DNA of 55,609 nt, from positions 1 through 55,609 of the forward strand of contig JANNSC010000095.1 of assembly GCA_031402135.1 (NCBI GenBank), written 5' to 3'. Origin of the DNA: Gemmatimonadales bacterium (GTDB lineage: Bacteria > Gemmatimonadota > Gemmatimonadetes > Gemmatimonadales > GWC2-71-9). Below, piece by piece: positions 27,624 through 45,111 of the stretch. The translations under genes and the position numbers were made by a program. Within the stretch, counting starts at the first letter, position 1; every line of letters begins with the position of its first letter. The notes under the pieces are model-generated. The model was not told where the DNA came from. It was given only the letters and a program-made list of their open reading frames with translations, and searched no databases.

Positions 27624-28604
27624 TTAAGGCGCTGGACCAGCTTCATCAAGCGGGAGTTCGGCCTCGTCGTCCGGCTCGACAATCCAGCCCTGGTCGAGCG
27701 CTTTCCGCCGGGGCAGCTCCCGCCGTCGTTTGGCCCAAGCGGCCCAGATTACCACCGAGCCGGCCGCCAGCCAGAAGCCCCCAGCCAGCCCCCAGGTCAC
27801 CAGTCCAAATCGTCGGCGGACGTCCTTCTGCCACTCTTCCTCGAACCGGCTCAGAGTCCATCCTGTCGATGCCAAAACCGCCTCGGAAAAGCCCTGGCCA
27901 CCACGCAGCCGGTCGAGCAGCGGAACCAGGGAGCGTTGGGGGTGGCGCCGGGCCAGCATGGTGACCGCAGATGCCGCCAGCCCGTATGCAGTTTCGGCGG
28001 TCAACTGACTGCCGCGCAGCGCCCGATCGAGTTCAAAGAAGCCCGGCACCTTGCCCCGGGCCACGCTCAAGTCGAGCCGAAGCTTGTCGAAGCGACTCCA
28101 TTCCCCCGCCGCCACCGAAGCGTACCCCTCGTTGAACCACAGGGGCACCCTCCCCGGCACGGCATCGTGCAAGGCGAAGTGGGCGAGCTCGTGGGAGAGG
28201 ATCTGCTGAGGATTGCCGGCATCGGCCCGAATCACGATGGTGCGGACTCCCGGCAGCGCGAATCCGGCGCCCCACGAGGGGGCCCGGCCCCCCATTACCG
28301 AATCGAGCCGGGCGCCACCTCGCAGCACAATCAGTTGGAGCGGACCGGGACTGCTCCGGCCGAGGCCATACCACGCTCGGGGTGCCCCGGCCGCCTCCGC
28401 AAGCGCAATAGCCAGATTCACGTCGGCCGGCCGCGCAACTGCCCGGACCGAGCCCACCTGCACCTCCTGAAATCCCTGGAGGAGGAGCAGACTCAGCCAG
28501 AGCCGGTGCGCGGAACCTCCTCGCCCCGAGCGGTGCGCTCGAGCAGCTCCTGGCAGCGCTGGGCCCAGGGTGAAAATTTTCCTGCCGCCGCCCCCTGTTC
28601 CCAA
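27624..28604 (-). CDS. peptidase MA-like zinc metalloprotease with C-terminal TM anchor
   Basis: HELAHFALHD (HExxH) plus a downstream WFNEGYAS glutamate, and a C-terminal TM GLAGGFWLAAGSVVIWAAWAKRRR. The start is ambiguous. ATG 28604 overlaps the upstream gene by 112 nt. The alternative GTG at 28455..28457 is preceded by AGGAGG but loses the hydrophobic LWLSLLLL segment. Confidence 0.65.
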   Translation of the reverse strand: MGTGGGGRKIFTLGPALPGAARAHRSGRGGSAHRLWLSLLLLQGFQEVQVGSVRAVARPADVNLAIALAEAAGAPRAWYGLGRSSPGPLQLIVLRGGARLDSVMGGRAPSWGAGFALPGVRTIVIRADAGNPQQILSHELAHFALHDAVPGRVPLWFNEGYASVAAGEWSRFDKLRLDLSVARGKVPGFFELDRALRGSQLTAETAYGLAASAVTMLARRHPQRSLVPLLDRLRGGQGFSEAVLASTGWTLSRFEEEWQKDVRRRFGLVTWGLAGGFWLAAGSVVIWAAWAKRRRELPRRKALDQGWIVEPDDEAELPLDEAGPAP

Positions 28605-29365
28605 CTGGCTCGCGCTTTGGGCTGCTCCCCGGCAAACCAGTGGGCCCGCCCGAGGTCGTAGTAGGCCTCGATCAGATTGGGACCGAGCGCCAGCGCCTTC
28701 CGAAGAAAAGACTCGGCGTCGGCCATCATGCCGCGTTCCAGATACACCAGGCCGAGGTAGTAGTGGGCGTACAGTGTTGCCTTGGGGTCGTTGTCCATCC
28801 GGATGACCCGGGAGAGATGCTCGATCGCTTCGCCGAAAATCATTTTCTTGAGGCAGATGTACCCGACGTTGACCCGGGCGAGAGCGTTGGCCGGTTCGGT
28901 CATCAGGACCCGGGAGAACGTCGCCAGGGCATCATCGAAGGCTTCCATGAGCATCTGGGCCCAGCCCAGCAGGGAGAGGGCCTGGGGGTCTCCGGGGGCA
29001 AGTTCGAGAGCCCGCTGCAGCGCCTGGGTGGCGCCGGCCGGATCGCCCAGCGAGATCAGGCTCCAGCCCTTCTCGATGTAGGTCGAGGCGCCCAGGTGAT
29101 CCCGGTGCAATTGCGGCGTCTCCGGTGCGCGCGCGGCGCCGGCGTCGGCGCTGGCTTCCTTGTAGCGGGTTACCAGTCCCCGGATGTCCTCCTTGAGCTG
29201 GGCAAACTCACCCAGCGCCCCATCCACCCGCTTGAAAAGTCCCACGATTCGCCGCTTGACGTCCTCCCGCTCGGTCCCGGCGGCACCGCCGTCGAGGGCC
29301 GCGCCGATGGCGTGGAATTCCTCCCGGAGGCCTTCCAGCAGCAGAGGAGGACGCGGATCGGTCAC
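28493..29365 (-). CDS. TPR repeat protein (290 aa)
   Basis: TPR units such as AGATQALQRALELAPGDPQALSLLGWAQ, ANALARVNVGYICLKKMIFGEAIEHLSRVIRMD and AHYYLGLVYLERGMMADAESFLRKALALGPN. GTG start in a GTGA overlap with the cheD stop. Confidence 0.8.
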   Translation of the reverse strand: MTDPRPPLLLEGLREEFHAIGAALDGGAAGTEREDVKRRIVGLFKRVDGALGEFAQLKEDIRGLVTRYKEASADAGAARAPETPQLHRDHLGASTYIEKGWSLISLGDPAGATQALQRALELAPGDPQALSLLGWAQMLMEAFDDALATFSRVLMTEPANALARVNVGYICLKKMIFGEAIEHLSRVIRMDNDPKATLYAHYYLGLVYLERGMMADAESFLRKALALGPNLIEAYYDLGRAHWFAGEQPKARASWEQGAAAGKFSPWAQRCQELLERTARGEEVPRTGSG

Positions 29366-29853
29366 AGCTCCACCGAGCCGTGCTGGTAGGAGCTCACCAC
29401 CACTCGGCCGGTTTCCACGTTGAAGTCCACGGAACGGCCATAGTCCCCGCCCACCACCTCGCCAACGGTGCGGATGCCCTGGCGGTGGAGCGCCTCGCGC
29501 ACCGCGTGGACGTTGCGTTCGCCCATCTGGATGGTGCCGGCGGGTTGCAATGCGGAGAACATGCTGGCCCCACCGACCAGACGCGCGGTGAGCCGGGGCT
29601 GCTGCGCCCCCAGCGCGAGCAGCAGTTCGGTCAGCGCGGGGATGGCCGTGGGTGCGTAGCGCCCCGGCGTGTCAGGACGGGCCCGCCCGACGCTCCCTGA
29701 CGGCAGCAGCACATGGGCCAGGCCTCCAACCTTGGCGACCTGGTCGTACAGGATCACCGCGACGCAGCTTCCCAGGGCCAGTGCCGTGAGCGTGGCCGGC
29801 GCACTGGCGACCTCCATTTCGGCGATTCCGATGATTCGGCGCGGGGCGGTCAC
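29362..29853 (-). CDS. cheD: chemoreceptor glutamine deamidase CheD
   Basis: GTG start (29851..29853) in a GTGA overlap with the cheR stop. ALGSCVAVILYD (catalytic Cys), GGLAHVLLP (His), GERNV; 163 aa. The longer track ORF is rejected. Confidence 0.88.
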   Translation of the reverse strand: MTAPRRIIGIAEMEVASAPATLTALALGSCVAVILYDQVAKVGGLAHVLLPSGSVGRARPDTPGRYAPTAIPALTELLLALGAQQPRLTARLVGGASMFSALQPAGTIQMGERNVHAVREALHRQGIRTVGEVVGGDYGRSVDFNVETGRVVVSSYQHGSVEL

Positions 29854-30665
29854 GACGCCCTCCGGTAAATGCGATGAGTGACATCGACCGGGGTCAGCCC
29901 GGCATCGGGAAACGCCAGCAGCGATTCCGTCCGGCCGAGCATCAGGAGCCCGTTTTCCGCCAGCGCACCGCAGGCCGCCTGGAGCACTCGGCGCTGCCCC
30001 TCGGGGCCAAGAAATATGAGCAGGTTGCGACAACAGACCAGATCGCACCGGTCGGGGGACACTGCGCCGGCGGTGAGATCTTCATGGCAAAAAGTGACTC
30101 GCTCGCGGGCGGCGGATCCCACCACGAAGTGTCCATCTTCCACGGTTCCGTAGGGCTCCGACACCACGGCCGTGATTGCGGCCGCCGCGCCCGGCGCATA
30201 GCGACCGGCGATTGCCGCCGTCAACCCCTGGGAGTCCACGTCGGAAGCGAACACCCGGATATTGGCAGCCGGCGGAACTCCCAGCTGTCGGGAAAGGTCG
30301 AGCAGCAGCATGGCCAGGGACCACGCCTCTTCGCCGGTGGCGCAGCCCATGCTCCAGGCGGAGATCTGTCCTGCCTGCCCGCATCGCTGGCGCAGCAGGT
30401 GGGCCTGGAGGCACTGCCAGCTGTCGGGGTTCCGAAAGAACTCGGTGACCCGCACCGAGAGGGTGTGCAGCAGCTGGTCCACTTCGGCCGGGTCATCGGC
30501 AAGCATTCCGGCATAGACGAGGAGAGAGTCGGTTCCCCGGGCCCGCATCCGCACCTCCACCCGGCGCAGGAGGCAATTTTCCTTGTACCACTCGAACCCG
30601 CCGGCGCCGTGCAGCGCCAGCTCCTTGATGACCACCGAGAGCCCATACTCATCTTTCAGGGTCAT
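29850..30665 (-). CDS. cheR: chemotaxis protein methyltransferase CheR
   Basis: Start MTLKDEYGL (ATGA overlap with the upstream stop). VTEFFRNPDSW, AWSMGCATGEEAWSLAMLL (SAM-binding), CRNLLIFL. Confidence 0.88.
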   Translation of the reverse strand: MTLKDEYGLSVVIKELALHGAGGFEWYKENCLLRRVEVRMRARGTDSLLVYAGMLADDPAEVDQLLHTLSVRVTEFFRNPDSWQCLQAHLLRQRCGQAGQISAWSMGCATGEEAWSLAMLLLDLSRQLGVPPAANIRVFASDVDSQGLTAAIAGRYAPGAAAAITAVVSEPYGTVEDGHFVVGSAARERVTFCHEDLTAGAVSPDRCDLVCCRNLLIFLGPEGQRRVLQAACGALAENGLLMLGRTESLLAFPDAGLTPVDVTHRIYRRAS

Positions 30666-32278
30666 GGCGACAACGGCAGAGTGTCGAGGTTGGCCCGGGC
30701 CAGTTGATGCCCCGGATTGAGCGCCAAGGCGCGGTCCCAGCATTCCCGGGCCCGGGCAGTGTCGCGCTGACGAAAGGCAAGATTGCCAAGCTTGAAGAAG
30801 AGATCGTCTCCCAGGCAGGGGTCGAGGGCAGCAGCGCGCTGGTAGAGACTCACCGCCTCGTCATAGCGGCCGGAGCGATAGCAGAGATCGCCAAGGTTCT
30901 TGAACGCCTGGGGAAGCGAGGCGTCGGTGGCCAGAACTTCCCGGAGCAGCACCTCCGCCTCGGCGATGGCCCCGGTGGCCTCGAGCAGCACCGCGTAATT
31001 GTTGCGCAGGACGACGTCGTGGGGATGGTGCTCGCTGCCCTCGCGTCCCAGCGCAAGCGCGCTGTCCAGATCCTCGGTGCCGGCGGCGGCACGCATTGCG
31101 GCCCAGTACCAGAGGGCAGGCGGAGTCTCCCGAATCATTTCCCGGGCCCGCTGCAGGCGCTGCCGGGCCACCACCGGCTCGCCCCGCTTCAAGGCGAGAA
31201 TGCCCCAGCCGAGGTGGATCCGGCCATCATCCGGGGCCCGGCCAGCCGCCTCGGCCAGCGCCGTCTCGGCTTGCTCGAGCCTTCCCTGTTGCTGGAGCGC
31301 AATCCCCAGGTTGTGGAGCAGCGACGGGCGGGGTCCGCTGCGGTCGATAGCCTGGCGCAGCAGGTCGGTCGCCTCGGCCCACTGGCCCCGGCGGGCCGCA
31401 ATGAGACCGAGGTAGAAGGGCGCGGTGCCTTCGGAGGGCCGCAGTTCCGCCACTCGGCGAAACTCCCGCAGCGCCTCGTCGAGCATGTCGGTTCGGTAGA
31501 AAGCAATCCCGAGGTTGCGATGCTCCTCGAGCTGAGCATCGAGCAGGCGGGATGGCGCCGCCATGGCTGAGGTGCCGACCTTGTGGGCGAGTCCCGCGGT
31601 GACCAGGCCGTAGAGCGCCTGCCCGGCGTCGAATTCCACCAGCCCCGACTGGTCGATGACCTGGCGAACGTCACGCTGCCCATCGAGCAAGGGGAGGATG
31701 CGGCGCTGCGATTCGGTGAAATCCGCCTGATGCCCTTCGACCTGTCCGGGCAGCACCGCGAAAATGAGATCGAAACTGGTGATTTTTTTCTCGATCAGGC
31801 TCCACTCGTCAATGCGACGAGCGCCCTCCAGCAAGAGCGATTCCGGGTTGATGCGGTCGAACCGGTCCTCTCCCTCGGGCTGGACGCCGACCTCGAAGCT
31901 GAAGGTGCCGGTTTCCCAGGAGAAGAGCGAGTAGACCGCCTCCTCGATCTGCAGCCGGACCGAGCGGCGGAGTCCTTCGGGGCTGAGCACCCCAAGGGTC
32001 ACCAGCAGTTCTCCGATCCGGCGCCCCGGTGCGGTCTGCTGAAGCACCAGCGCCTGTTCCAGCTGAGGCCGGGTTATGGCACCGCTGGCCAGCAGCATGT
32101 CTCCCAACCGGTCGCGCCGGTTGACGATCGAGGCAGAGATGATCGCGCCTTCCTCAAACCAGATCGATCCGTGGCGCTGCCGGTCGGCGACCGAAAGGCA
32201 TCCGGTTCTTCGCCCCATGAAGAGGAGCTGGATGACGTCGGGGAGGCTGGCCTCGCGGAGACTGCCCTTGATGGCCAT
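30662..32278 (-). CDS. PATAN (DUF4388) domain - TPR repeat protein
   Basis: The N-terminus MAIKGSLREASLPDVIQLLFMGRRTGCLSV...GSIWFEEGAII is the DUF4388/PATAN signature. The C-terminal half has multiple TPR units. It is a paralog of 36416..37564 (shared LLLEGARRIDEWS block). Confidence 0.8.
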   Translation of the reverse strand: MAIKGSLREASLPDVIQLLFMGRRTGCLSVADRQRHGSIWFEEGAIISASIVNRRDRLGDMLLASGAITRPQLEQALVLQQTAPGRRIGELLVTLGVLSPEGLRRSVRLQIEEAVYSLFSWETGTFSFEVGVQPEGEDRFDRINPESLLLEGARRIDEWSLIEKKITSFDLIFAVLPGQVEGHQADFTESQRRILPLLDGQRDVRQVIDQSGLVEFDAGQALYGLVTAGLAHKVGTSAMAAPSRLLDAQLEEHRNLGIAFYRTDMLDEALREFRRVAELRPSEGTAPFYLGLIAARRGQWAEATDLLRQAIDRSGPRPSLLHNLGIALQQQGRLEQAETALAEAAGRAPDDGRIHLGWGILALKRGEPVVARQRLQRAREMIRETPPALWYWAAMRAAAGTEDLDSALALGREGSEHHPHDVVLRNNYAVLLEATGAIAEAEVLLREVLATDASLPQAFKNLGDLCYRSGRYDEAVSLYQRAAALDPCLGDDLFFKLGNLAFRQRDTARARECWDRALALNPGHQLARANLDTLPLSP

Positions 32279-34219
32279 CTACTTGAACTCCGCGATGAGG
32301 CGGTCCCGCATGACCGGCCACTCTTCCACGGTTTTTTCCGAGCTCCGCACCAGCCCCATCCCGGGTGACAAGATGCCGCTGGCTCGGCCGGCGCTGCTCT
32401 TGCGCTGTCCCCGGCCGGGCCCCAGGTCGAGGACCTCGAGGACTTCGCGGGCCAGGGCGGGGCTGGGCGTGACGCCCTGGGCGGCGGCTTCGCCCAGCAC
32501 CCGCTGGACGATGCCCTGGACCGCGCGGATCGAGTCGGCCGGCCGGGCTGCGAGGTAGTCCGCCAAGCCGGCATCGAGCTCGGCCAAGGTGCCGGCGAGG
32601 AGCCGCTTGATGACCGTCAGCCGCACCTCCCGATCGGGTGCGGGGAGTTCGACGACGAGCCCGCTCTCCAGGCGTACCAGGAGCCGAGGATCGATCACTT
32701 CCAGACTCTCCAGGGGGCGCAGGCTGGCGAAGACCATCTGCCGCCCGCCTTCCAGCAGCTCGTCCTGCAGCATCAGCAGTTCCATTTGCGCGTCGGTTTC
32801 GCCGGCCAGCAGGTGGAAATCATCCACCAGCAAGGCCCCCACCCAGCGATACCGGTGGCGCCAGGCGGCGCGCTGCACCGGCTCGGCGTGGGCCCGCACC
32901 TCGGCCGCAAAGGCATGGGCGCCAAGGCACGCGATGGGCGCGACACCTCGGGCGGCGAGGGCGTTGCCGAGCCCGTGGAGGAAGTGGCTCTTGCCCGCCC
33001 CGGCACCGCCGATGATGACCAGCGGGGAGTAGCGCTGACCCGGCTCATTGATGATGTCCCGGGCGGCCATCATGGGCAGCCGTATGCCGGGGCCCTCGGC
33101 GAAATCCTCGAAGCGATAACTGGCCAGCGGCGCAGTGAGTGGTGCCGTGCGGGAGCGGGCCTGCTCGACCAGCGCCCGGGCAGCGGCCACCTGATCGGGA
33201 TCCCGAAAGAGTTCCGCCCCGGCAAGATCAGGGGCGAGTTCCGCGGCCTCCAGGGCGAGGGCGAGGATTTCCCGCGCATCGGCGTCGTAGAGGGCGAGGA
33301 TCGGTTCCGGGTCGACCGGCGCTTCCCGCTGAAGCAGCTCCTCAAGACGCCGAGTTCGCAGCCCTTCCCCGCCCCATTTCAGGACGGCTTCCCCGATCCG
33401 GCGGCGCCAGCGATCGACTTGCTCCGAGAGACTGGCGGTGACCTCGGAGAGAAAGGCGCCAAATTCGTCTCCGGCATCGGCGGGCAAGGCAGGCGGCTGG
33501 AACGGCTCGGGCAACGGTGCCACCGGCGCGCCAATCAGGAGCAGCGCATCGCGAGCGGACAGCGGAACAGCGCTGGCTTCCTGAAACGCGAGGAGCCGCG
33601 CCAAGGCGCCGGTGTAGTCCCGCATGGAGGGAAACTCCGCCTCGGCGATGGCGCGGACCGCTTCGCTGGGCAGTACCGTGGTCGATCCGGTGAGGCGCTG
33701 ACGGAGGATTGCCAACCGAGTGGCCGGTCCCGGGAGCGTCAGCGTGACGGTGGTTCCTTCCGACAGCCGGCGCACCAGCCGGGCATCGAGGCCGGAGAGC
33801 TGGTCGACCGGCACGGTCACGGCGATCACCACTTCCCGGCCGGCACCCCGCCGGGCATCCACCAAATCGGCCACCAGTCCCTGGCAGTCGCGGTGCCGAG
33901 CCAGCGTTTCGAGATCATCCAGCAGCACCAGATCGGCCCCGAACAGCTCACCCCGAAAGCGTTCACCCCGGGCAACCAGGAGCGCGGAGCGATAGCGCTG
34001 GGCCAGCGTGTCAGGGTCGAGCACCTCGAGGGTCGCGCTGGGATGATGGGTCCGGACCCGGGAGGCAATGGCCTGGAGAAGTTCGGTCTTGCCGCTCCCC
34101 GGCGCGCCCACCACCACCAGCGGCGCGTAGGGAACCCCGCTGGCGTCCGCCACCGCCCGGGCCGCCGCGGCGGCGGGGCGGTTGGCCGGGTCGAGAACGA
34201 AGGTCTCGAAGTCGGTCAC
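32279..34219 (-). CDS. tandem DnaA-domain-III-like (Hda-like) AAA+ ATPase, two modules, no DNA-binding domain IV
   Basis: Module 1: FETFVLDPANRPAAAAARAVA...PLVVVGAPGSGKTELLQAI (Walker A), LVLLDDLETL (Walker B), RLVRRLSEG (box VII Arg), SMRDYTGAL (sensor 2). Module 2: FEDFAEGPGIRLPMMAARDII...PLVIIGGAGAGKSHFLHGL, LLVDDFHLL, RLLVRLESG, SIRAVQGIV. Each is colinear with E. coli DnaA TFDNFV...GGTGLGKTHLLHA...LLIDDIQF...RLKSRF...VRELEGAL. GTG start in a GTGA overlap with the mglA stop. Confidence 0.75.
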   Translation of the reverse strand: MTDFETFVLDPANRPAAAAARAVADASGVPYAPLVVVGAPGSGKTELLQAIASRVRTHHPSATLEVLDPDTLAQRYRSALLVARGERFRGELFGADLVLLDDLETLARHRDCQGLVADLVDARRGAGREVVIAVTVPVDQLSGLDARLVRRLSEGTTVTLTLPGPATRLAILRQRLTGSTTVLPSEAVRAIAEAEFPSMRDYTGALARLLAFQEASAVPLSARDALLLIGAPVAPLPEPFQPPALPADAGDEFGAFLSEVTASLSEQVDRWRRRIGEAVLKWGGEGLRTRRLEELLQREAPVDPEPILALYDADAREILALALEAAELAPDLAGAELFRDPDQVAAARALVEQARSRTAPLTAPLASYRFEDFAEGPGIRLPMMAARDIINEPGQRYSPLVIIGGAGAGKSHFLHGLGNALAARGVAPIACLGAHAFAAEVRAHAEPVQRAAWRHRYRWVGALLVDDFHLLAGETDAQMELLMLQDELLEGGRQMVFASLRPLESLEVIDPRLLVRLESGLVVELPAPDREVRLTVIKRLLAGTLAELDAGLADYLAARPADSIRAVQGIVQRVLGEAAAQGVTPSPALAREVLEVLDLGPGRGQRKSSAGRASGILSPGMGLVRSSEKTVEEWPVMRDRLIAEFK

Positions 34220-34818
34220 GGAGCCGGGGGCCGTGCCGCGAGGCGCTGCAGCACCAGGCTGGACAGCGCCTTCAGGGTTTCAAACACGCCACTCCCGTGC
34301 AGCGCGTCGGAGGGAAAACTGGGCACCCCGCGAAAATTAAAGGCGTCATCGAGTTCGCTGGGCGCCAGGATCAGGTCGGTGGGAAGGTCCTGTTTGTTGT
34401 ATTGGAGGACGAGAGGAAGCTGCCGAATGTCCACGCCTTGCTCCAGCAAGTTTTCCTGGAGGTCTCGAAAGCTCTCGAGATTATCGTCGAATCGCCGGGC
34501 CTGACTGTCGGCGACGAAGACGACGCCATCAGCGCCCTGCAGCACCAGTCGGCGGGTGGCATTGTAATAGACTTGTCCCGGCACGGTATAGAGTTGAAAC
34601 CGCGTGGTATAGCCGGAAATGATGCCGAGTTCGAGCGGCAGAAAATCAAAGAACAGGGTTCGGTCCGATTGGGTGGCCAGCGACACCATGTTCCCCCGCC
34701 GATCCTCCGGCACCCGACCATGGATATAGAGCAGATTGGTGGTCTTTCCGCACCGCCCGGGTCCGTAGAAGACCAGTTTGCAGGTGATTTCACGGCTGGT
34801 GAAGTTTACCAGAGGCAT
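34216..34818 (-). CDS. mglA: Ras-like polarity GTPase MglA
   Basis: 200 aa, MPLVNFTSREITCKLVFYGPGRCGKTTNLLYIH...SDRTLFFDFLPLELG...RFQLYTVPGQVYY...VLQYNKQDL. It is near-colinear with Myxococcus MglA ([32 protein letters not shown]...TDRTLFFDFLP...TVPGQV...NKRDL). The track's 312-aa extension is rejected. Confidence 0.92.
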   Translation of the reverse strand: MPLVNFTSREITCKLVFYGPGRCGKTTNLLYIHGRVPEDRRGNMVSLATQSDRTLFFDFLPLELGIISGYTTRFQLYTVPGQVYYNATRRLVLQGADGVVFVADSQARRFDDNLESFRDLQENLLEQGVDIRQLPLVLQYNKQDLPTDLILAPSELDDAFNFRGVPSFPSDALHGSGVFETLKALSSLVLQRLAARPPAP

Positions 34819-34822
34819 CAGG

Positions 34823-35284
34823 TCACCGTCCGAACAGCGCGCGAAGGCTGCTGTTGAGTTCGTCCTCGAAATTTTCCGCCAACACCTGCCGGGCCGGCTC
34901 GGCGGCCGGCGCAGCGCGCTCGAGGTCCTGGGTGAGGCGAGCGAAAAAGAGCTGGACCAGGCCGAGGGAGGTTTCCGCTCCGAAAACGACGAGACCGATC
35001 CAGCGGCCTCTCGGGGTGGAGAACGCGGCGAGGTAGAGGCCCAGCCCGGTTCCCTGATGGACCACCGCATCCAGCGGTCGGCTGCCCATGACGCGGGCCA
35101 ACTCGGCGGTTGCGGCCATGATGCCGGCTCCCAGCGCAGCGGCGGACATGACATCGAGCGAACGAGTGAAGCCGTGCTGCGCCACGACCTGGCCCGACGC
35201 GGTCATCAGCAGCGTGACCCGGGCCGCCGATTCGCCGAGGAACTCGGTCAGCGGCCGCTCCACCCACGGCTCGATGGCGCGCAT
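34823..35284 (-). CDS. mglB: Roadblock/LC7 domain protein, MglB-like GAP
   Basis: 153 aa. VTLLMTASGQVVAQHG...AALGAGIMAATAELARVMG...LVVFGAETSLGLVQLFFARLTQDL parallels MglB VVFLVDKNGQLISSAG...VIFDNRTSLGLVRLRIKKASDEL. It lies immediately upstream of mglA. Confidence 0.85.
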   Translation of the reverse strand: MRAIEPWVERPLTEFLGESAARVTLLMTASGQVVAQHGFTRSLDVMSAAALGAGIMAATAELARVMGSRPLDAVVHQGTGLGLYLAAFSTPRGRWIGLVVFGAETSLGLVQLFFARLTQDLERAAPAAEPARQVLAENFEDELNSSLRALFGR

Positions 35285-35628
35285 CAGGCGGATTGCTCCG
35301 CAGCCGCGAGCAGGCCGAGTCGGAGCTCACCGGCGTTGACGTCCGCCGCCGCGATGGCCACGACCAGCAAACCGCCCGGGGCGGGCGCCACCAGGAGTGC
35401 CCCCTCACTGCCGGTGAGCTGGACCAGCACCCCCTCCGGGTGACCCAGTGCCGCCGTCATGCCGCCGATTCGTTGGGTGAGGCTGGCGGCGAGCGCGGCC
35501 ACCGCTGCTCCATCCAGACTGTCCATGAGCGCCTCGGCCACCACCAGTCCGTCCTCGCGGGAAACCAGCAGGGCGCCACGGACGCCGGCAATGCGGGTCA
35601 GGGTGTCGAGCGTATCGGTCAGGCTCAC
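35284..35628 (-). CDS. Roadblock/LC7 domain protein (second paralog, MglC-like position)
   Basis: 114 aa. LTRIAGVRGALLVSREDGLVVAEAL...AAVAALAASLTQRIGGM...LLVAPAPGGLLVVAIAAADVNAGELRLGL shows a typical Roadblock fold pattern. GTG start in a GTGA overlap. Confidence 0.75.
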   Translation of the reverse strand: MSLTDTLDTLTRIAGVRGALLVSREDGLVVAEALMDSLDGAAVAALAASLTQRIGGMTAALGHPEGVLVQLTGSEGALLVAPAPGGLLVVAIAAADVNAGELRLGLLAAAEQSA

Positions 35629-36419
35629 CGGAGTTCCTCCAGCCAGCGCCGCGCGGTGGCGGTCGCGCGGTCGGCCAGGAGGGCCAGCCGTCCGGCGGGC
35701 ACCTCAGAGGGGCGGGTTATGAGCAACACCGCGTCCACCGTGGGGAGACGAATCTCGAAATGGGCCGGGCCACCCTCCAGGGCAATCCGCCGCCAGGCGC
35801 CCAGCCCGAGGAGCCGGGCCACGCGGTCGGCCTCCCGGGTGATGCCCCCGAGGGCTGCCGCCACTGCCTCAGCGGCGTCCCGGCCATCGGCGGCCCGAAC
35901 GCCGCCTGCCAGTATCCGTCCCTGCCGGTCCACCAGCACCGCCCGCCCGGCCTCCGGGTCGAGGACGGCGAGGGGATCGGGCGCGGGCTCAGCATAACCC
36001 GGTATCGGCCGTGCCCCGGCCCGCTCCCGGGCCCGGGCGAGCGCCGCCGCGAGTGGGGCGTCCTCCGGCGACAGTTCCGCGGCCCTCTGCATGTAACGCA
36101 GACTGCGGGCGTGGTCGCCGGCCCGGTAGGAGAGGAACGCCAGCCCCTTGTGGGCGCCAACGTGCTCCGGCGCCAGCCGGAGGACGGTGGTCCAGGCATC
36201 GAAGGCGAGGTCTCCCTCCCCTCGATCGCTCTGGATCCGGGCGACCAAATCCCAGGCGCCGGCCATTTCCGGATAGCGGCCCGCCCCCTGCGCAGCCACG
36301 GTGAGCGCTGACTCGAATTGGCCCCGCCGGCGCAGCAACTCGGCCAGCGGGAGGAAGACCAGGCTCGAGGGGTCGCGGGCGAGCTGCGCGGTCAGGGCCG
36401 GGATGTCGTCGCTGGTCAC
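35625..36419 (-). CDS. TPR - Roadblock/LC7-like fusion protein
   Basis: GTG start (36417..36419) in a GTGA overlap with the upstream stop. The N-half is TPR-like (AGAWDLVARIQSDRGEGDLAFDAWTTVLRLAPEHVGAHKGLAFLSYRAGDHARSLRYMQRAAELSPED). The C-half (GRAVLVDRQGRILAGG...EAVAAALGGITREADRVARLLGLG...VLLITRPSEVPAGRLAL) follows the Roadblock pattern. Confidence 0.65.
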   Translation of the reverse strand: MTSDDIPALTAQLARDPSSLVFLPLAELLRRRGQFESALTVAAQGAGRYPEMAGAWDLVARIQSDRGEGDLAFDAWTTVLRLAPEHVGAHKGLAFLSYRAGDHARSLRYMQRAAELSPEDAPLAAALARARERAGARPIPGYAEPAPDPLAVLDPEAGRAVLVDRQGRILAGGVRAADGRDAAEAVAAALGGITREADRVARLLGLGAWRRIALEGGPAHFEIRLPTVDAVLLITRPSEVPAGRLALLADRATATARRWLEELR

Positions 36420-37564
36420 GACACCTTCCGAAGTTGCTCGACCAGGTGCCGCGCGGCGGGCACCACGCCCGACACCTCCCGAAGATGCGCTGCTTCCTCG
36501 GGATTCTTGTCGGGAAGAGCCAGCCACGCCTCGAAGCCATGCACCGCTTCTTCGAGTCGCCCGGCCCCGAGAAGCGCCCACGCCAGGAGCCGCCGGGGAC
36601 GGCAGCCACCCGGATCCAGCCGCACCGCTTCTCGAAGCGCACTTTGGGCCTCAGCGTAACGGCGCTCGATCAGCAGGATCGAACCGATCAGCAGATGGGT
36701 CCGCGAGTCGCCGGGAAAGGCATCGAGCGCCGCCTGCGCGGCGGCCCGCGCCGCATCGGCGTTCCCGGCGCGAAGCTGGTCTTCGCCCTGACGGAGCAAG
36801 GCCTCGGCATCCCGGCGAGGCGCGGCGTGGGCCGATTCGAGCGCCGGATCCCGGAGGACCACCACACCGGCAGTGGTCAGCCCGAAGAGAGCGCGGGCCA
36901 CATCGAACTCGGGTTCTCCCAGCGAAACTGCCATGGTATGCAGGTCGCGATCGCCGTCAGCTGCAGCGAGCACCCGCCACTCGAAGGGGGTCAGGGTGAG
37001 TGAACCGGAGTCGGTGGTGACCGGCGGCGCCAACCGGGGAACCACGCCGGTATGGGCTACCCGGCTCTGGATCCGGGACCACTCATCGATGCGACGGGCT
37101 CCCTCGAGCAGGAGGTGTTCCACCGAAATCCGGAGATCGGTCTCCTGGGGGATTTCCTCGACTGGACACTCCTCGAATACAAAATACCCCTCGGACCATC
37201 CTAGCATGGTGAAAACGACGTCCTCGATGTGGGCGCGCACCTGAATCTTGAGCTCCCGCTCGCTAAGGGCTCCGGTCGCCACCAGAATTTCCCCGATCCG
37301 TCGAGCGTCCCCGTGTTCCTGCAGGGCCCGGGCCTGGGCCAGGTCTTCCTCGCGAATCTTTCCGGCCCGCAGCAGCGCGGTTCCCAGCGGATGCGGATTC
37401 GAATGAATCGAGGCCGCCACCACTGCGGCCGCGTCGAACCAGATGGTGCCTTCATTCTGGCGAAGGGCTGAGGAAATGTTGAGCGCCCCGGTCTTGCGGC
37501 CCAGGTCGAGCAGCTGAAAGACGTCGTGGATGCCGAGCTCGCGGAGAGGCCCCTGGATGGCCAT
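36416..37564 (-). CDS. PATAN (DUF4388) domain protein with C-terminal TPR-like region
   Basis: MAIQGPLRELGIHDVFQLLDLGRKTGALNI...GTIWFDAAAVV is the DUF4388 signature. It shares the LLLEGARRIDEWS block with 30662..32278. Confidence 0.8.
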   Translation of the reverse strand: MAIQGPLRELGIHDVFQLLDLGRKTGALNISSALRQNEGTIWFDAAAVVAASIHSNPHPLGTALLRAGKIREEDLAQARALQEHGDARRIGEILVATGALSERELKIQVRAHIEDVVFTMLGWSEGYFVFEECPVEEIPQETDLRISVEHLLLEGARRIDEWSRIQSRVAHTGVVPRLAPPVTTDSGSLTLTPFEWRVLAAADGDRDLHTMAVSLGEPEFDVARALFGLTTAGVVVLRDPALESAHAAPRRDAEALLRQGEDQLRAGNADAARAAAQAALDAFPGDSRTHLLIGSILLIERRYAEAQSALREAVRLDPGGCRPRRLLAWALLGAGRLEEAVHGFEAWLALPDKNPEEAAHLREVSGVVPAARHLVEQLRKVS

Positions 37565-37565
37565 T

Positions 37566-40232
37566 TCAGGCCGGGCTCGATTGGAGGATATGAGCCAGTT
37601 CGCGCGCCGAGCGGGCCTGGGCCCGGGCCGGCTCCGCGAACGGGCCGGTGGGGTCGAGCGCCGTCACCCGTTCCCAGTCAACCACCGCGGCGCGGTAGCG
37701 ACGCAGCCTCGCTTCGGCGAGGCCGCGGTGATAGAGCGCCAGCACATGGTCGGGGTGGAACCGAACCACCCGGTCGAACGCGGCGATTGCCTCTTCGGTG
37801 CGCCCATCGTCGGCGAGGCTGCGGCCAAGCAGCACCAGGGCCTCCAAGGCGTAGGGCTGGGCAAGCAGCAGATCCACCATGAGCCGGATGGCTTCCCCGG
37901 TGAGCCCGCTTCGCCGCAGCAGGTCGCCGAGGGCGAGCCCGGCATCGAGAAAGGTCGGGAGCAGTTCGAGGGCCCGCTGGTACGCAATGCGAGCGGCGCC
38001 GCTGCGCTGCAGTTCCTCCTCCACGACACCGCGTTCGTACCACGCCTGCACCAGGGTGCCGTCGAGCTCCAGGGCGCCGGTGAGGGCGTCGAGCGCGCCG
38101 AGGCCGTCACCCTGCTTCCGGAGAATGCTGCCGCGGAGCAGCAGCAGATCGGCGCGCCCGGGCGCCTGCGTAGCTGCGGCGGTGACGTCGAGGGCGGCCC
38201 CTTCGAGATCACCGATGAGCTGGCGAGCGTGGGCGCGAACCAGCAACACCTCGGGTCGATCGGGCCCCTGCCCCACCAGCTGGTCGGCCACTGCAATGGC
38301 CTCCGCACCGCGACCCAATGCCACCAGGGACTGAGCTTCCCCGAGCAGAATGTCGGAATCGTTGGGTGCCAGAGCTCGCGCCTCCCTGAAGCGCTCCAGC
38401 GCCTCCCCGAAAAGGCCCCGGCGGGCAAAGACCTCACCGAGGAGGGCGGCTCCGGTGGCCCGGGGCGCGCCGCGACGAATTGCCCGGTGGACTTCGGCCG
38501 CCGCGGTATCGAGCAAGCCCTTGCCGAGCAGATCCCGGACCAGCGCGTAGAGGTCGTCCTCCGGATCCGGAGCCGGCGCGGTTTCCCGGGGAGCAAGCTG
38601 CCCGAAGAGCTGGTCGAGCACTCCGGGGTCAAAGTCGAAGCCCTCATCGGTCGGGAAGGTTCCGGAGGCAGCCCAGACTGCGGGAGGCATCGGGAGCAGA
38701 GATTCCTCGAACTGCAGTTGGACCGCAAGCGCATAGCTCTGCGGCACGTAGAAGGGATCCAACTCGAGGGCCCGCCGGGTTTCCCGCAGGGCATCGTCGA
38801 AGGCGCCCAGCTGGCTCAGCGCGAATCCGAGGTTGTATCGGGCTGGAGCAAAATTGGGGTCATTCTCGACCGAGCGGGCAAATGCGTTGCGGGCATCCTG
38901 GTGCCGGCGCAGTTCCATCAGGACCAGACCGACTCCATTCCAGGCCACCGGCTCTCCGGGCCGGTCCGCCAAGGCGGCGCGGTACGCTTCGAGGGCGTGT
39001 TGGAGGTCGTGGCGCTGGAGGAAGAGATGTCCGAGGTTGAGGCGGGCGCCGGCAAAATCCGGTCGGGCCCGGAGCGCCACCTGGAACGCTTCGACCGCGG
39101 GCCCGGTGTCGGAGTCGCTAGTACCGGCCACGCCGAGATTATTCCAGGCGTGGGCCGAGGAGGGATCGGCGTCCACCGCCCGTCGATAGGAGCCCCGGGC
39201 TTCCTCCCGGCGGCCCGCTTGATGGAGGCAGACGCCTCGCTCGTTCCAGAGTTCGGCATTGCCCGGCTGGCGCTCGAGTAAGCGATCGTAAAGCTCGATG
39301 GCCGCGCCGAAATCTTTCCGGAGCAGGTGGGTTTCGGCCATCGCTTCGAGCGCAGTGGCCTCGTCCTCACCGGATTCGAGCGCGAGGCGGCACTCCCGCA
39401 GCGCTTCGGTGAGGTAGCCGCGCTTTCGAAATGCGACGGACAGACTGAGATGCGGCTGCAACACTCCGCCATCGCTTCCACCGGTGGGGCGGCGGGGCGC
39501 CTTGCCGCGCTTGCCACCGATGAGCAGGTTGGGCTGGGCGGTGGCCAGCGCCGGGTTCAACGCGATGGCCCGGCGGGTCGAGGCGCGGGCTGCCTCGTGG
39601 TAGCCAAGATCTCCGTAGAGGAATCCCAGGAGGTAGTGCACCTCGGCGTGATCGGGATTGAGCGCCGTGGCCTCGGTGAGAATGGTCAGTGCCTTGTCGT
39701 TGAGGCCCCGGTTGTACAGCGCTCGCCCAAGGTAGAGCCGGGCCACCGAGCTTTTCGGGTCGGCGTCGCAGGCGCGCTGGTACCACTCGGTGGCGCGCTC
39801 CGGGCGGCCCCGGGCCTGCTCGACCAGCCCGAGTTGCACCAAGGCGGTTGGATCGACCGGATTGATCCGGAGCAATTCCTCGTGCTGTTGAATGGCCTGA
39901 TCGTGCTGGCCCAAGGCGAGATAGGCGCGGGCGAGTTCGAGTCGGGCGTTTCGGGCACCGGGATCCCGGGTAAGACGCTCGCGCAGGTCCCCGATCAGGG
40001 TGTCGAAATAGCCCGACTCCCGCTGCACAGTTTCCAGATTGTCCTGAGCGACCCGCATGTCAGGGTCGAGCTCGAGCGCGTAGCCCAAGGCGGCAATCGC
40101 CTCGGGGATCAGCCCGCGTTCGTAGTAAAAAACACCGAGGTTGTTCTGGGCACCCGGGTCCGAGGGGTCAATCCGCCGGGCGAGCGACCGGAGAGCGTCG
40201 GCGTCCCGGCCGGACGGAGCGGCCGCCGGCAT
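37566..40232 (-). CDS. large TPR repeat protein (888 aa)
   Basis: About 20 recognisable 34-residue TPR units run through the whole length, e.g. AQNNLGVFYYERGLIPEAIAALGYALELDPD and AEVHYLLGFLYGDLGYHEAARASTRRAIALNP. Confidence 0.85.
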   Translation of the reverse strand: MPAAAPSGRDADALRSLARRIDPSDPGAQNNLGVFYYERGLIPEAIAALGYALELDPDMRVAQDNLETVQRESGYFDTLIGDLRERLTRDPGARNARLELARAYLALGQHDQAIQQHEELLRINPVDPTALVQLGLVEQARGRPERATEWYQRACDADPKSSVARLYLGRALYNRGLNDKALTILTEATALNPDHAEVHYLLGFLYGDLGYHEAARASTRRAIALNPALATAQPNLLIGGKRGKAPRRPTGGSDGGVLQPHLSLSVAFRKRGYLTEALRECRLALESGEDEATALEAMAETHLLRKDFGAAIELYDRLLERQPGNAELWNERGVCLHQAGRREEARGSYRRAVDADPSSAHAWNNLGVAGTSDSDTGPAVEAFQVALRARPDFAGARLNLGHLFLQRHDLQHALEAYRAALADRPGEPVAWNGVGLVLMELRRHQDARNAFARSVENDPNFAPARYNLGFALSQLGAFDDALRETRRALELDPFYVPQSYALAVQLQFEESLLPMPPAVWAASGTFPTDEGFDFDPGVLDQLFGQLAPRETAPAPDPEDDLYALVRDLLGKGLLDTAAAEVHRAIRRGAPRATGAALLGEVFARRGLFGEALERFREARALAPNDSDILLGEAQSLVALGRGAEAIAVADQLVGQGPDRPEVLLVRAHARQLIGDLEGAALDVTAAATQAPGRADLLLLRGSILRKQGDGLGALDALTGALELDGTLVQAWYERGVVEEELQRSGAARIAYQRALELLPTFLDAGLALGDLLRRSGLTGEAIRLMVDLLLAQPYALEALVLLGRSLADDGRTEEAIAAFDRVVRFHPDHVLALYHRGLAEARLRRYRAAVVDWERVTALDPTGPFAEPARAQARSARELAHILQSSPA

Positions 40233-40236
40233 CGTG

Positions 40237-40872
40237 TCAGTTGGCGACCCGGATCGCGTCGAAAATGGCTTGCAGCGAGGGAGGGTCCGGCATCAGCAGG
40301 AACTGCCCGGTAAGGGCCTGGTCGGATCCTTCGATCCGGAAAGTCGTTTCGACGCAGAACAGGGCGTCGCGATCGTGGCCGAAGTTGAGGTAGGCGGTGG
40401 TGAGGACGGCGCCGGCCAAGTCGACGACCAGCGCGGGCACCGAGGGGACCAGCATCATCCCCAGAAAATCGGAGAGCGCCGTCATGTAGGCGGAGCAGAG
40501 AATATTCGCGGTTTCCTTGATGGTGGACTGCTGCATGGCATCGAACGTGGTGCCGGGACCATTGGGGCGCCGGAGCAGAAGCTCACACAGCGCAAACGCG
40601 GAATCCTGGCCCAGGACAACCAACGTCCGCCCGGTCAGATCTCCCATAACGTGCATGAGTACACCGGCAATCACCGTATCCGGTGGCCCGACCAACAGCG
40701 CGACCTCCTCGAGGCGGCGAATGCTGACTTCGGGGACACTGATCATGATCTTGCGGCTGGTCATTTGGGAGAGCGCGGTGGCTGCGTGGCCGGCCCCGAT
40801 GTTGGCCACCTCGCGCAGCGCATCCCGCTCCAGGTCGGTCAAGGATCTCAGGTCAGCCATCACATCCTCCAC
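40237..40872 (-). CDS. cheC: CheY-P phosphatase CheC
   Basis: Two CheC active-site repeats: LREVANIGAGHAATALS and IKETANILCSAYMTALS (E-x2-N). About 210 aa. An alternative start is 12 nt downstream. Confidence 0.85.
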   Translation of the reverse strand: MEDVMADLRSLTDLERDALREVANIGAGHAATALSQMTSRKIMISVPEVSIRRLEEVALLVGPPDTVIAGVLMHVMGDLTGRTLVVLGQDSAFALCELLLRRPNGPGTTFDAMQQSTIKETANILCSAYMTALSDFLGMMLVPSVPALVVDLAGAVLTTAYLNFGHDRDALFCVETTFRIEGSDQALTGQFLLMPDPPSLQAIFDAIRVAN

Positions 40873-42450
40873 CTAGAAGAGAGCGGCCGGGTCGATGATC
40901 AGCGCCGGCGCGCCGTCGGGCAGAATCGTGGCTCCGCTCACCCAGGTGGGGAGTCCCGCCGGCGCCATGAACCGCCGAACCACTACGTCCTGCTGCCCCA
41001 GCAGCACATCCACCACGAGGGCGGCGCGGCGCCCCCCGATATCCACCACCACGACTGGCCGCCGGGAAGCATTGGCCTCGGCCAGGCCAAGGATCTTCCG
41101 GAGATCGGCGGTGGGCAACGATTCCTCCCGTAAAATAACCTCGCCGTCGCCTGCTTTATGCACCGCAGCCTCGGCCAGAAGCCCGAAGGGGAGCGCGTAG
41201 CGTTCTCCGCCCACCCCGACCAGCAGTGCCCGGAGGATCGCTCGGGTCACCGGAAGGTGCATCAGGAAGGTGGTGCCCCTCCCCGGAACGGTTTTGAGCT
41301 CCATCCGGCCGCCGAGGGAGCGCACCCGCGCCAACACCGCATCGATGCCAACCCCGCGTCCCGAGACCGCAGTGACTTCACGCTTGGTGGTCAGGCCGGG
41401 GTGCGCCAGCAGCCGGAGCAGCCCGGTGGCATCGGGCATCCCTGCCTCGGGGTCAAGAAGACCGCGCTCCACGGCGCGGAGTCGCACCGCCGCACGATCG
41501 ATCCCGCGGCCGTCGTCGGCAACCGTGACGGTCACCTCATCGCGGACTCGCTCGGCCCGAAGCCGGAGGGTGCCGTGGCGGGGCTTCCCGACCGCGATCC
41601 GCTCCGACGGCGATTCCATCCCGTGGTCGGCGGCGTTTCGAAGCAGGTGGGTGAGTGGCTCGGTGAGTGCATCGAGCACCGAGCGATCGAGTTCGATATC
41701 GATGCCCTGCAACTCGAGCTCCAGCTCCTTGCCGAGCTCCCGGCCGAGGTCGCGCACCATGCGAGGAAATCGGTCAAAGACCTCGTCCACCGGCGCCATG
41801 CGGGCCCGGAGCACCCCGCTCTGGAGGCCGGAGACCAGCGCCGAAATCCTGCCACTGACCTGCTCCAGGTCAGATCCGATTTCCCGATCGGCAATCCCGG
41901 AGAGCCGGTTGCGCGACACCACCAGCTCACTCACTGCGGTGACCAGCGCATCGAGCCGCTCGAGGTCGACCCGGACCTGCCGGGCGGGGAGCTTGGTCAT
42001 GACCGGCTGGGCGCCGGTGAGCCGCGGCTGAATCCGACGCTCCACCACCGGCATTTCCCCAGTGCGGGAATCGACCACCGGGACCAAACCGTAGAGCGCG
42101 TCGATCAGGAGGGGATCGACCTCGGGTGGTTCGCCCCGACCGACTGCCTCGACCGCCTCGGCAAGGCCATCTACCGCGTGGAAAAGGGCCTCGAGCGCAT
42201 CGCGGGAGACGGCCAGGGTCCCCTGACGCACCGCCGCAAGCACCTGTTCGGCGGCGTGGGAAAGGTCCGACAGCGGCTCGAGAGAGAGCGCTGCCGAAGA
42301 ACCCTTGATGGAGTGGAAGGCACGAAAAAGCTCGGCCACCGGAGTGGACGAGCTCGGATCACGCTCCCAGGCGAGGAGCAGCTCGTTGCAGCGCTGAAGG
42401 TGGTCGCGGCTGTCGGAGAGAAAGAGGGCGGTATATCGGGCCAGATCCAC
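40873..42450 (-). CDS. cheA: chemotaxis histidine kinase CheA (P1-P3-P4-P5, no obvious P2)
   Basis: Hpt FHSIKGSSAAL, dimerisation VRVDLERLDALV, N-box LTHLLRNAADHG, G1 DDGRGID, G2 GRGVGID, and a C-terminal CheW-like domain. Confidence 0.92.
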   Translation of the reverse strand: MDLARYTALFLSDSRDHLQRCNELLLAWERDPSSSTPVAELFRAFHSIKGSSAALSLEPLSDLSHAAEQVLAAVRQGTLAVSRDALEALFHAVDGLAEAVEAVGRGEPPEVDPLLIDALYGLVPVVDSRTGEMPVVERRIQPRLTGAQPVMTKLPARQVRVDLERLDALVTAVSELVVSRNRLSGIADREIGSDLEQVSGRISALVSGLQSGVLRARMAPVDEVFDRFPRMVRDLGRELGKELELELQGIDIELDRSVLDALTEPLTHLLRNAADHGMESPSERIAVGKPRHGTLRLRAERVRDEVTVTVADDGRGIDRAAVRLRAVERGLLDPEAGMPDATGLLRLLAHPGLTTKREVTAVSGRGVGIDAVLARVRSLGGRMELKTVPGRGTTFLMHLPVTRAILRALLVGVGGERYALPFGLLAEAAVHKAGDGEVILREESLPTADLRKILGLAEANASRRPVVVVDIGGRRAALVVDVLLGQQDVVVRRFMAPAGLPTWVSGATILPDGAPALIIDPAALF

Positions 42451-42456
42451 CGGGGC

Positions 42457-42819
42457 TCACCCGAGCAGCCGTTGCACCGCTTCGAGCACGCGGGAGGGCT
42501 GAAACGGCTTGACCACGAAGTCCTTGGCACCGGCTTGAATTGCTTCCACCACCAGGGCCTGCTGCCCCATGGCGCTGCACATCAAGATCTTGGCCTGGGG
42601 GTTGTCCTTGCAGATTTCGCGTACCGCCTCGATGCCGCCCATCTCAGGCATGACGATGTCCATGGTGACCAGATCGGGCTTGAGCTGGCGATATTTTTCC
42701 ACCGCCTGGGCGCCGGATTCAGCTTCACCGACGACTTCGTACCCGGCTTGGGTGAGAATATCGGTGATCATGGTTCGCATGAAGATCGCGTCGTCGCAGA
42801 CGAGCACCGTATGAGCCAC
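42457..42819 (-). CDS. cheY: response regulator CheY (single receiver domain)
   Basis: 120 aa. VLVCDDAIFMR, phospho-acceptor LVTMDIVMPEMGG, KDFVVKPF. Confidence 0.92.
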   Translation of the reverse strand: MAHTVLVCDDAIFMRTMITDILTQAGYEVVGEAESGAQAVEKYRQLKPDLVTMDIVMPEMGGIEAVREICKDNPQAKILMCSAMGQQALVVEAIQAGAKDFVVKPFQPSRVLEAVQRLLG

Positions 42820-42834
42820 GGGGTCCTCCCTCGG

Positions 42835-43212: not shown

Positions 43213-43216
43213 TTGG

Positions 43217-45091: not shown

Positions 45092-45111
45092 TCCGTTCGG
45101 AGTAAACTGGT

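Follow-up and report, generated by a model that had tools for sequence, protein, structure and literature searches.

The replication initiator DnaA works through an AAA+ module, domain III: ATP-bound protomers join head to tail, the box VII arginine of one contacting the ATP of the next, and initiator-specific helices favour open spiral assemblies over closed rings. To our knowledge, this domain is taken to serve replication alone, and its known offshoot without domain IV is Hda. PATAN domains, for their part, bind the ATPase PilB1 and set the polarity of type IV pili in Synechocystis (bioRxiv 10.1101/2021.06.11.447907), and the occurrence of MglA/MglB genes near PATAN genes has been noted earlier (PMC4316618). 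The subject of this report is a gene of a Gemmatimonadales bacterium that brings these themes together. It lies at 32279..34219 on the (-) strand of a 55,609-nucleotide stretch (contig JANNSC010000095.1, assembly GCA_031402135.1; the whole stretch is called the window here), and it encodes two copies of DnaA domain III in one chain of 646 residues, between the gene for the GTPase MglA and a gene for a PATAN-TPR protein. We consider it very likely that this tandem protein is a non-replicative DnaA paralogue, of the architecture described below and linked to signalling, and it most likely acts in signalling and not in replication.

The tandem gene is an open frame of 646 codons with a GTG start, open throughout, and its GC content at third codon positions (GC3) of 0.83 is typical among the genes of the window. 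The two complete DnaA AAA+ cores that an earlier note on this DNA had read from it are confirmed by profile and by fold. Pfam PF00308 (Bac_DnaA) matches the tandem protein twice (E 1.5e-51 for the whole protein); when the halves were scanned separately, aa 3-158 scored 83.9 bits and aa 367-524 scored 95.9 bits against a gathering score of 23 bits. The approximately 140 residues between the two matches have no Pfam match. The halves align collinearly with each other (28% identity, E 2e-19), and their nearest solved relatives by sequence are the domain III structures of DnaA from Thermotoga, Bacillus, and Aquifex, with PDB entry 2z4r matching the C-terminal module at E 1.2e-27. An AlphaFold2 model built with 111 homologues reached a predicted local distance difference test score (pLDDT) of 85.7, mostly above 90 in the N-terminal module. 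The top Foldseek match of this model is domain III of Bacillus subtilis DnaA (8bv3; TMt 0.87, root-mean-square deviation (rmsd) 2.6 Å), and DnaA bound to single-stranded DNA (ssDNA; 3r8f) is also among the top matches. The N-terminal module with its lid helices thus spans aa 1-230 (33530..34219; PF00308, TIGR00362, and AlphaFold2), and the C-terminal module plus lid spans aa 367-596 (32432..33121; PF00308, TIGR00362, and PDB 2z4r).

The Walker A, Walker B, box VII, and sensor-2 elements that the earlier note listed for each half are all found. Walker A reads GAPGSGKT (38-45) in the N half and GGAGAGKS (404-411) in the C half; Walker B reads LLDD (99-102) and LVDD (VDD 465-467); and sensor 2 is represented by SMRDY (R200) and DSIRAV (R565). 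Box VII appears as DARLVRRL (D145/R147/R151) and DPRLLVRL (R512/R516), and R147/R151 and R512/R516 are presumably the equivalents of R281/R285 of Escherichia coli DnaA, judging by our own alignment to the E. coli sequence. The FxxFV opening that had been given to both halves does not hold for the C half, which opens FEDFA, and the DnaA sensor-1 motif TSD is degenerate in both halves (AVT and ASL). With the Walker A lysine, Walker B acidic pair, arginine finger, and sensor 2 present at both sites, each site would qualify, by its motifs, as that of a catalytically competent AAA+ ATPase. The model also places paired helices at the beta2-beta3 position of each half, H69-81 and H85-94 between strands E64-67 and E97-100 in the N half, and H434-442 and H447-457 between E429-433 and E462-466 in the C half. 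By position alone, without superposition, these pairs are consistent with the initiator-specific motif that would favour open, filament-type contacts.

The rest of DnaA is missing, as the earlier note had said. Neither domain IV (PF08299, Bac_DnaA_C), sought in the whole protein and in its C-terminal piece, nor domain I (PF11638, DnaA_N) gave a match at E<=0.1, and domain III begins at residue 3, leaving no room for domain I or for the linker domain II. Beta-clamp-binding motifs are of the QL[SP]LPL type. Searches of the whole tandem protein with the regular expressions QL[SDP]L[FLP], QxxLx(x)F, and QLxLxL gave nothing. Lacking domain IV, domain I, and a clamp motif, the tandem protein cannot function as DnaA does, and a function like that of Hda is unlikely. 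All of its scores against curated DnaA and Hda models fall below the cut-offs: the DnaA equivalog model TIGR00362 gives 129.4 and 146.8 bits for the two halves against a cut-off of 343.9, covering only model positions 106-336 of 437; the Hda model TIGR03420 gives 55.4 and 51.9 bits against 194.8; and NF006571 (Hda/HdaA) gives 40.4 bits against 297. The PDB Hda structure 5x06 is a marginal match (E 0.0026).

The descent of the family can be read from its slowly evolving members. The comparison used P0392, a canonical DnaA that has domains I, III, and IV; its identity is 51% to the N half of the relative P0178, 46% to P0401, and 43% to P0100, against approximately 30% to either half of the window protein. 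This spread argues that the family arose from domain III of DnaA and that the clade of the window protein is a fast-evolving branch. The description of the protein as Hda-like, made in the earlier note, therefore survives only in the missing domain IV. An Hda-like descent is ruled out by profile scores that favour DnaA over Hda (129-147 bits against 52-55), by the missing clamp motif, and by the identities to DnaA.

What separates the two modules had been described as a helical, proline-rich linker of about 130 aa. A proline-rich stretch does exist and the region is helical, but most of it is a conserved folded domain (aa 252-356) and not a spacer. The hinge proper occupies aa 231-250 (33470..33529) and was delimited by pLDDT, alignment gaps, and composition: it is 35% proline, is predicted to be disordered (pLDDT <50 for aa 237-249), and is gap-rich in the alignment, with a length that varies among relatives. 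It is followed by a family-specific helical-bundle domain (aa 251-366; 33122..33469), delimited by AlphaFold2 and by conservation in 111 sequences, in which the helical bundle itself (aa 252-356) ranks with the most strongly conserved regions of the family. Its invariant residues include E252, F256, W271, P304, P330, G334, D340, and P341, and its motifs are DEFxxFL, APDLAGA, and FRDPDQ. AlphaFold2 predicts this domain on its own with a pLDDT of 88 and a predicted template modelling score (pTM) of 0.75; no homology was found for it in Pfam (each aligned member scanned), in a PDB-sequence profile search, or by Foldseek on the confident model.

The protein ends in a disordered Gly/Ser/Arg-rich tail (SGIxSPG) and a C-terminal helix (aa 597-646 plus stop; 32279..32431), assigned by pLDDT and conservation. 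The tail has a pLDDT of 30-50 over aa 598-626, and AlphaFold2 places a helix at 637-645. The C-terminal helix, of a putative docking type, carries a conserved motif, EK.V..WP....R.I.EL, that is absent from the earlier note's description, and G615, P619, E628, K629, and W634 are invariant in the 111 sequences. Three subgroups were checked for this WP motif, and 113/114, 113/116, and 89/113 of their full-length proteins have it; a 456-aa variant without the whole C half retains it too.

Conservation of the ATP sites was followed in a close set of 111 relatives and in a wide set of 78 clusters at 60% identity that includes a few true DnaAs matched twice. In the close set the C-site is nearly unvarying, with G407, G409, K410, D466, and R565 present in 111/111 sequences and D467 in 110/111, and the N box VII is kept to the same degree (D145 and R147 in 111/111, R151 in 110/111). 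The N Walker A lysine, K44, is kept in 101/111 and lost in 10, and the C-half finger R516 is lost in 25/111, including all 10 of the sequences without K44. In the wide set the N-site is intact in 71/78 clusters, the C finger in 63/78, the N finger in 55/78, and the C-site in 52/78; in 21/78 clusters, most of them of Longimicrobiales type, the C-site is dead and the C lid missing, with the C box VII arginines and a live N-site kept. Judged by these motifs, at least one complete ATP site is almost always kept, in nearly all clusters, and the loss patterns fit a head-to-tail coupling of the modules in which the C finger and the N-site appear as the most widely retained pair. The window protein itself belongs to a subgroup in which both ATP sites and both arginine fingers are intact. 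A single composite site, with the N finger feeding an invariant C site, had been derived from the 111 relatives and was rejected as not general, since N fingers are lost in 23/78 clusters and C-sites are dead in 26/78 with the arginines kept; after this rejection we keep only the weaker claim that the two halves are probably functionally coupled.

The gene junctions tie the tandem gene to both of its neighbours. Upstream, the TGA stop of mglA shares nucleotides with the GTG start (GTGA; junction CTCCGTGACCGAC / CTCCGTGACC), and downstream the TAG stop is followed immediately by the ATG of the PATAN-TPR gene (junction AAGTAGATGGCC), so that the placement, the start overlap, and the abutting stop given in the earlier note all read as described. 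Related loci (L numbers) repeat this arrangement. The mglA gene lies directly upstream of the tandem gene in the window and in eight loci of Gemmatimonadales type (L001, L002, L003, L005, L007, L008, L012, and L017) whose tandem proteins are from approximately 33% to 67% identical to that of the window, and the 4-nucleotide overlap of the mglA stop with the tandem start recurs in L003, L005, L007, and L017. These eight loci, each from a further lineage, repeat the che-Roadblock-mglA operon order of the window. Downstream, a PATAN-TPR homologue abuts or overlaps the stop of the tandem gene in 10/10 syntenic loci (L001-L003, L005, L007, L008, L012, L015, L016, and L017), and the 538-aa PATAN-TPR gene is the sole neighbour kept in all ten, with the Peptidase_MA_2 gene nearly as constant. 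Translational coupling, as read from the junctions, therefore links the tandem gene to the PATAN-TPR gene in every syntenic locus and to mglA in Gemmatimonadales.

Combining domain content with gene order, we propose that the tandem protein behaves as a covalent "DnaA dimer". The box VII arginine that reaches the ATP at a Walker site would come from the other module or from an adjacent molecule, as between DnaA protomers, and the nucleotide state would set a closed or oligomeric as opposed to an open conformation. This conformation would in turn decide how far the middle domain and WP helix are exposed and how they contact partners; the TPR or PATAN part of the adjoining 538-aa protein could plausibly bind the WP helix. 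That PATAN-TPR protein would be the constant partner. In Gemmatimonadales the pair would have been inserted into a cheW-Y-A-C / Roadblock / mglA / cheR-D operon, where its regulation or localisation would lie with MglA-GTP, the Roadblock proteins, and the Che pathway. There the pair could serve as an ATP-gated scaffold or effector through which MglA-GTP and chemosensory signals reach a complex at the pole or the division site. For the overall mechanism, an ATP-gated covalent dimer that acts as a switch or scaffold with the PATAN-TPR protein and is recruited to MglA and Che, our estimate is a probability of about 0.4. The position between divIVA and the dcw cluster weakly hints at a polar or septal role. 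Less probable still, and on balance somewhat unlikely, is the fuller proposal that an initiator AAA+ protein, known in this use so far only in Gemmatimonadota, was co-opted as a polarity or chemosensory effector in which head-to-tail closure or filament growth under the control of MglA-GTP and Che lets the WP peptide and the PATAN-TPR protein build or switch a polar or division-site complex.

Several observations weigh against this mechanism. The AlphaFold2 model has a pTM of 0.50, which makes its inter-domain arrangement unreliable, and head-to-tail packing of the two modules is putative. With sensor 1 degenerate in both halves, hydrolysis may be slow or absent. The joint loss of K44 and R516 comes mostly from one clade, and tests for association between sites and fingers were not significant once redundancy was reduced; every element is dispensable in some lineage, and no single catalytic scheme holds for all members. 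The genomic linkage has exceptions as well. The mglA/che association holds for the eight related loci and the window and fails in two Longimicrobiales-type loci, L015 and L016, which occupy the same chromosomal position without mglA or che and have the order divIVA, ileS, rluD, tandem gene, PATAN-TPR, Peptidase_MA_2, and a sigma-54 response regulator. Since these two loci keep the tandem gene beside the PATAN-TPR gene, the PATAN-TPR protein is more likely than MglA to be the primary partner. Stoichiometric co-expression with the GTPase and a role as its switch partner, both suggested in the earlier note, stay at the level of inference. In a further case from Gemmatimonadota, P0178, the gene adjoins a homologue of the 888-aa TPR protein and has neither mglA nor a PATAN gene beside it.

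The intact motifs of the window protein bear directly on a reading in which the protein is a pseudo-enzyme, its two AAA+ folds forming a static scaffold, nucleotide-bound or nucleotide-free, that bridges TPR and PATAN proteins, with ATP turnover playing no regulatory part. The degenerate TSD of both halves fits such a scaffold, as does the survival of relatives that have lost the N-site (13/111), the C-site (26/78 clusters), or either finger; one locus (L012) has a single AAA+ module, and the best-conserved elements outside the ATPase parts are the middle domain and the C-terminal WP helix. The clade of the window protein nevertheless keeps P-loops, Walker B motifs, sensor-2 arginines, and fingers intact in both halves, nearly all clusters retain at least one complete site, and the invariance of the C-site in 111/111 sequences argues for selection on nucleotide binding at least. 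We regard a static scaffold as unlikely. An outright artefact, in which errors of assembly or gene calling fused two neighbouring dnaA-like genes, would have only the unusual architecture to recommend it. It is refuted by the same collinear architecture in over 100 full-length homologues (640-690 aa) from independent assemblies, including contigs of 4.4, 1.7, and 3.7 Mb, and by a frame that is open throughout with a GC3 of 0.83 typical for the window.

Descent from DnaA raises the question of whether the protein still serves replication. As a control factor acting in the manner of Hda, it could dock its box VII arginines on ATP-DnaA, stimulating hydrolysis or capping or poisoning filaments, and so tie initiation to polarity, chemosensory, or division signals. 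Both halves do come from domain III of DnaA and keep the R281/R285-equivalent arginines, DnaA-like surfaces persist, the 43-51% identity of the slow relatives to canonical domain III makes hetero-oligomerisation with DnaA conceivable, and the locus sits in a cell-cycle neighbourhood between divIVA-ileS-lspA-rluD and the dcw cluster. This role is nonetheless quite improbable given the lack of the clamp-binding motif needed for regulatory inactivation of DnaA (RIDA) of the Hda type, scores below every DnaA and Hda curated cut-off, and the approximately 30% identity of the window clade to canonical DnaA; the closest conserved linkage is with the genes of PATAN-TPR and MglA, and not with dnaA, dnaN, or oriC, and the fusions observed are with the signalling domains REC and MshEN. 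The same low identity to canonical DnaA counts against a nucleic-acid role, in which the modules would bind or stretch ssDNA (or RNA) through the initiator-specific helices, for example in DNA uptake or pilus-linked processes. Two beta2-beta3 helices are kept in both halves, ssDNA-bound DnaA (3r8f) is among the best structural matches, and distant relatives are fused to MshEN in a locus resembling those of type IV pili or type II secretion systems (T2SS), but the operon has no DNA-related genes, its context is uniformly one of signalling and TPR proteins, and the folded parts of the protein carry a net negative charge (-2, -8, and -6). We consider this role highly improbable. The proposal of an ATP-gated switch or scaffold paired with the PATAN-TPR protein remains the one that we prefer.

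The family is sizeable. A first homologue search returned 190 homologues, the full-length members of which are 43-85% identical and 640-690 aa long, and the named members were all entered as "DnaA/Hda family protein [Gemmatimonadales]". Many further two-module proteins came from a profile search of 1.84 billion cluster representatives, and searches seeded with two distant members added hundreds, named Longimicrobiales, Gemmatimonadaceae, or Gemmatimonadota; a scan of species genomes with the single tandem protein found only two close relatives. All named relatives belong to Gemmatimonadota, and the MglA-linked architecture was not found outside this phylum in these score-ranked searches, in which few names were attached. 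Source records often label the family "chromosomal replication initiator protein DnaA", an annotation that is very probably wrong. In the open-access literature we found no description of a tandem DnaA-III protein or of a DnaA-type ATPase in MglA, PATAN, MshEN, Che, motility, or pilus contexts, in agreement with the earlier note's statement that such ATPases are known from replication control and not from motility or polarity loci, and the family is apparently undescribed so far.

Variants of the architecture occur at several loci. In L012 (7315-11037), the 456-aa variant consists of the N-half AAA+ module, the middle domain, and the WP helix, and lies between mglA and the PATAN-TPR gene. A 738-aa variant in L009 (8001-11691) joins the tandem DnaA-III unit, with a degenerate C-site, to a C-terminal receiver (REC) domain, and it adjoins Hpt/REC/Hpt/REC genes and a hybrid histidine kinase gene, a phosphorelay context. 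In L010 (2681-13179), proteins of 921 and 1876 aa fuse MshEN to DnaA domain-III modules; this locus, of pilus/T2SS type, also encodes a prepilin peptidase, an MshEN-T2SSE ATPase, and a small stand-alone DnaA-III protein. The REC and MshEN fusions support a broader use of the DnaA-III module in signalling. The tandem protein of L007 (9468-11929) represents a clade in which the N-half Walker A/B is dead and the C-half finger is missing. The MglA beside it is degenerate too, with 49% identity, eight residues deleted from switch I, and AIAGET in place of TVPGQ. This double degeneration, seen in one clade only, hints at co-evolution of two nucleotide switches.

These proposals have consequences beyond this locus. 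If the fuller one is true, a DnaA-type ATPase would for the first time be seen to work outside DNA replication, and MglA would have a new output device. The family would demonstrate that cell polarity or signalling can make use of an ATP switch of the initiator type. Research on MglA would gain a candidate partner or effector from a phylum that has been barely studied and includes cultured members (Gemmatimonas), and the natural half-dead variants, with a dead N-site, a dead C-site, or a single module, make the division of labour between the sites testable.

The surrounding genes of the window, all on the (-) strand and assigned by Pfam unless stated otherwise, run in the order divIVA, ileS, lspA, rluD; cheW, cheY, cheA, cheC; the gene for the 888-aa TPR protein, a PATAN-TPR gene, a TPR-Roadblock gene, two Roadblock genes, mglA, and the tandem gene, followed by the gene for the 538-aa PATAN-TPR protein, cheR, cheD, a TPR gene, a Peptidase_MA_2-like gene, a further TPR gene, and dcw genes (ftsI and murE/F-type ligases). 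The mglA gene (34216..34818) encodes a true MglA of approximately 200 aa that scores 231 bits and is collinear with Myxococcus xanthus MglA (6hjh). The mechanically called mglA frame (34216-35154) is 112 codons too long, extending upstream of the conserved MPLVNF start into the Roadblock gene at 34823-35284; alignment with five orthologues puts the real start at 34818. The two Roadblock/LC7 (MglB-like) genes at 34823-35284 and 35284-35628 match Robl_LC7 with E 4.7e-4 and 1.4e-7, and the pair is conserved in six related loci (L001, L003/L004, L005, L006 in part, L007, and L017). They are preceded by the genes for a TPR + Roadblock protein (35625-36581, start uncertain), a PATAN(DUF4388)-TPR paralogue (36416-37564), and the 888-aa TPR protein (37566-40232), and by cheC (40237-40872), cheA (40873-42450), cheY (42457-42819), and cheW (42835-43221, start uncertain). 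Past the tandem gene lie the gene for the 538-aa PATAN(DUF4388)-TPR protein (30662..32278; DUF4388 E 2.7e-36 plus TPRs), cheR (29850-30743), cheD (29362-30048), the gene for a 290-aa TPR protein (28493-29365), and a Peptidase_MA_2-like gene (27624-28604); the first starts of cheR, cheD, and the Peptidase_MA_2-like gene overlap their neighbours and are uncertain.

The region from 27624 to 43221 encodes CheW, CheY, CheA, CheC, CheR, and CheD together with five TPR-rich proteins and two PATAN-TPR paralogues, and has no receptor gene (methyl-accepting chemotaxis protein, MCP). Related loci carry an extra cheB and two more cheW genes, and likewise no MCP gene was seen in them. The che/mglA/DnaA-like module as a whole is placed between divIVA-ileS-lspA-rluD (43217-48740) and the dcw genes (19182-23987; ftsI and two Mur ligases), a placement common to the related loci, including those of Longimicrobiales type without mglA and che. 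In L015, which has no mglA, a 146-aa Roadblock/LC7-like gene (7564-8004) overlaps the tandem start by 4 nucleotides. A 200-aa gene that follows the P0178 homologue in L013 was checked as a possible MglA and had no Pfam match and no tblastn match.

A comparison of the tandem protein with the described systems shows both its origin and its departures from them. DnaA is its best match by sequence, profile, and fold (PDB 2z4r, 8bv3, and 1l8q/2hcb/3r8f), and each half is a full domain III, base and lid, with Walker A/B, box VII arginines, the sensor-2 arginine, and two helices at the initiator-specific position. Unlike DnaA, the tandem protein has two copies of this domain and lacks domains I, II, and IV, and hence DnaA-box binding; it possesses a novel helical domain between the copies, a conserved C-terminal peptide, and a degenerate sensor 1, and its gene resides in an mglA/che/PATAN operon rather than at dnaA-dnaN. 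With Hda/HdaA, the factors of RIDA, it shares the status of a DnaA domain-III paralogue that has no domain IV and keeps the arginine finger, but Hda is a single module of approximately 230-250 aa with an N-terminal beta-clamp motif, in contrast to the two modules and middle domain that make up the 646 aa of the tandem protein. The type II tandem AAA+ proteins p97/Cdc48, NSF, and ClpB also carry two AAA+ modules per chain, and the relatives of the tandem protein often pair one active module with a degenerate one, but they belong to another AAA+ clade, and the tandem protein has an insert of 135 aa between its modules. The helices found where DnaA has its initiator-specific motif would speak against p97-type stacks of closed hexamers. 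A p97-like stacked arrangement was rejected, as two-module Foldseek alignments gave an rmsd of 24-30 Å at 13-15% identity and the best matches were single DnaA domain III structures. The window operon resembles the MglA/MglB system of Myxococcus and Thermus in possessing a true MglA, three Roadblock-domain proteins, two PATAN-TPR proteins, and Che genes, and differs from the MglA/MglB and PATAN systems in that no AAA+ or DnaA-type component has been described in those. In the PATAN-PilB1 pair of Synechocystis, the ATPase is a T2SSE-family pilus assembly ATPase and not an AAA+ protein of the initiator clade, and the PATAN domain of that precedent is joined to a receiver domain, whereas those of the window operon are joined to TPR repeats.

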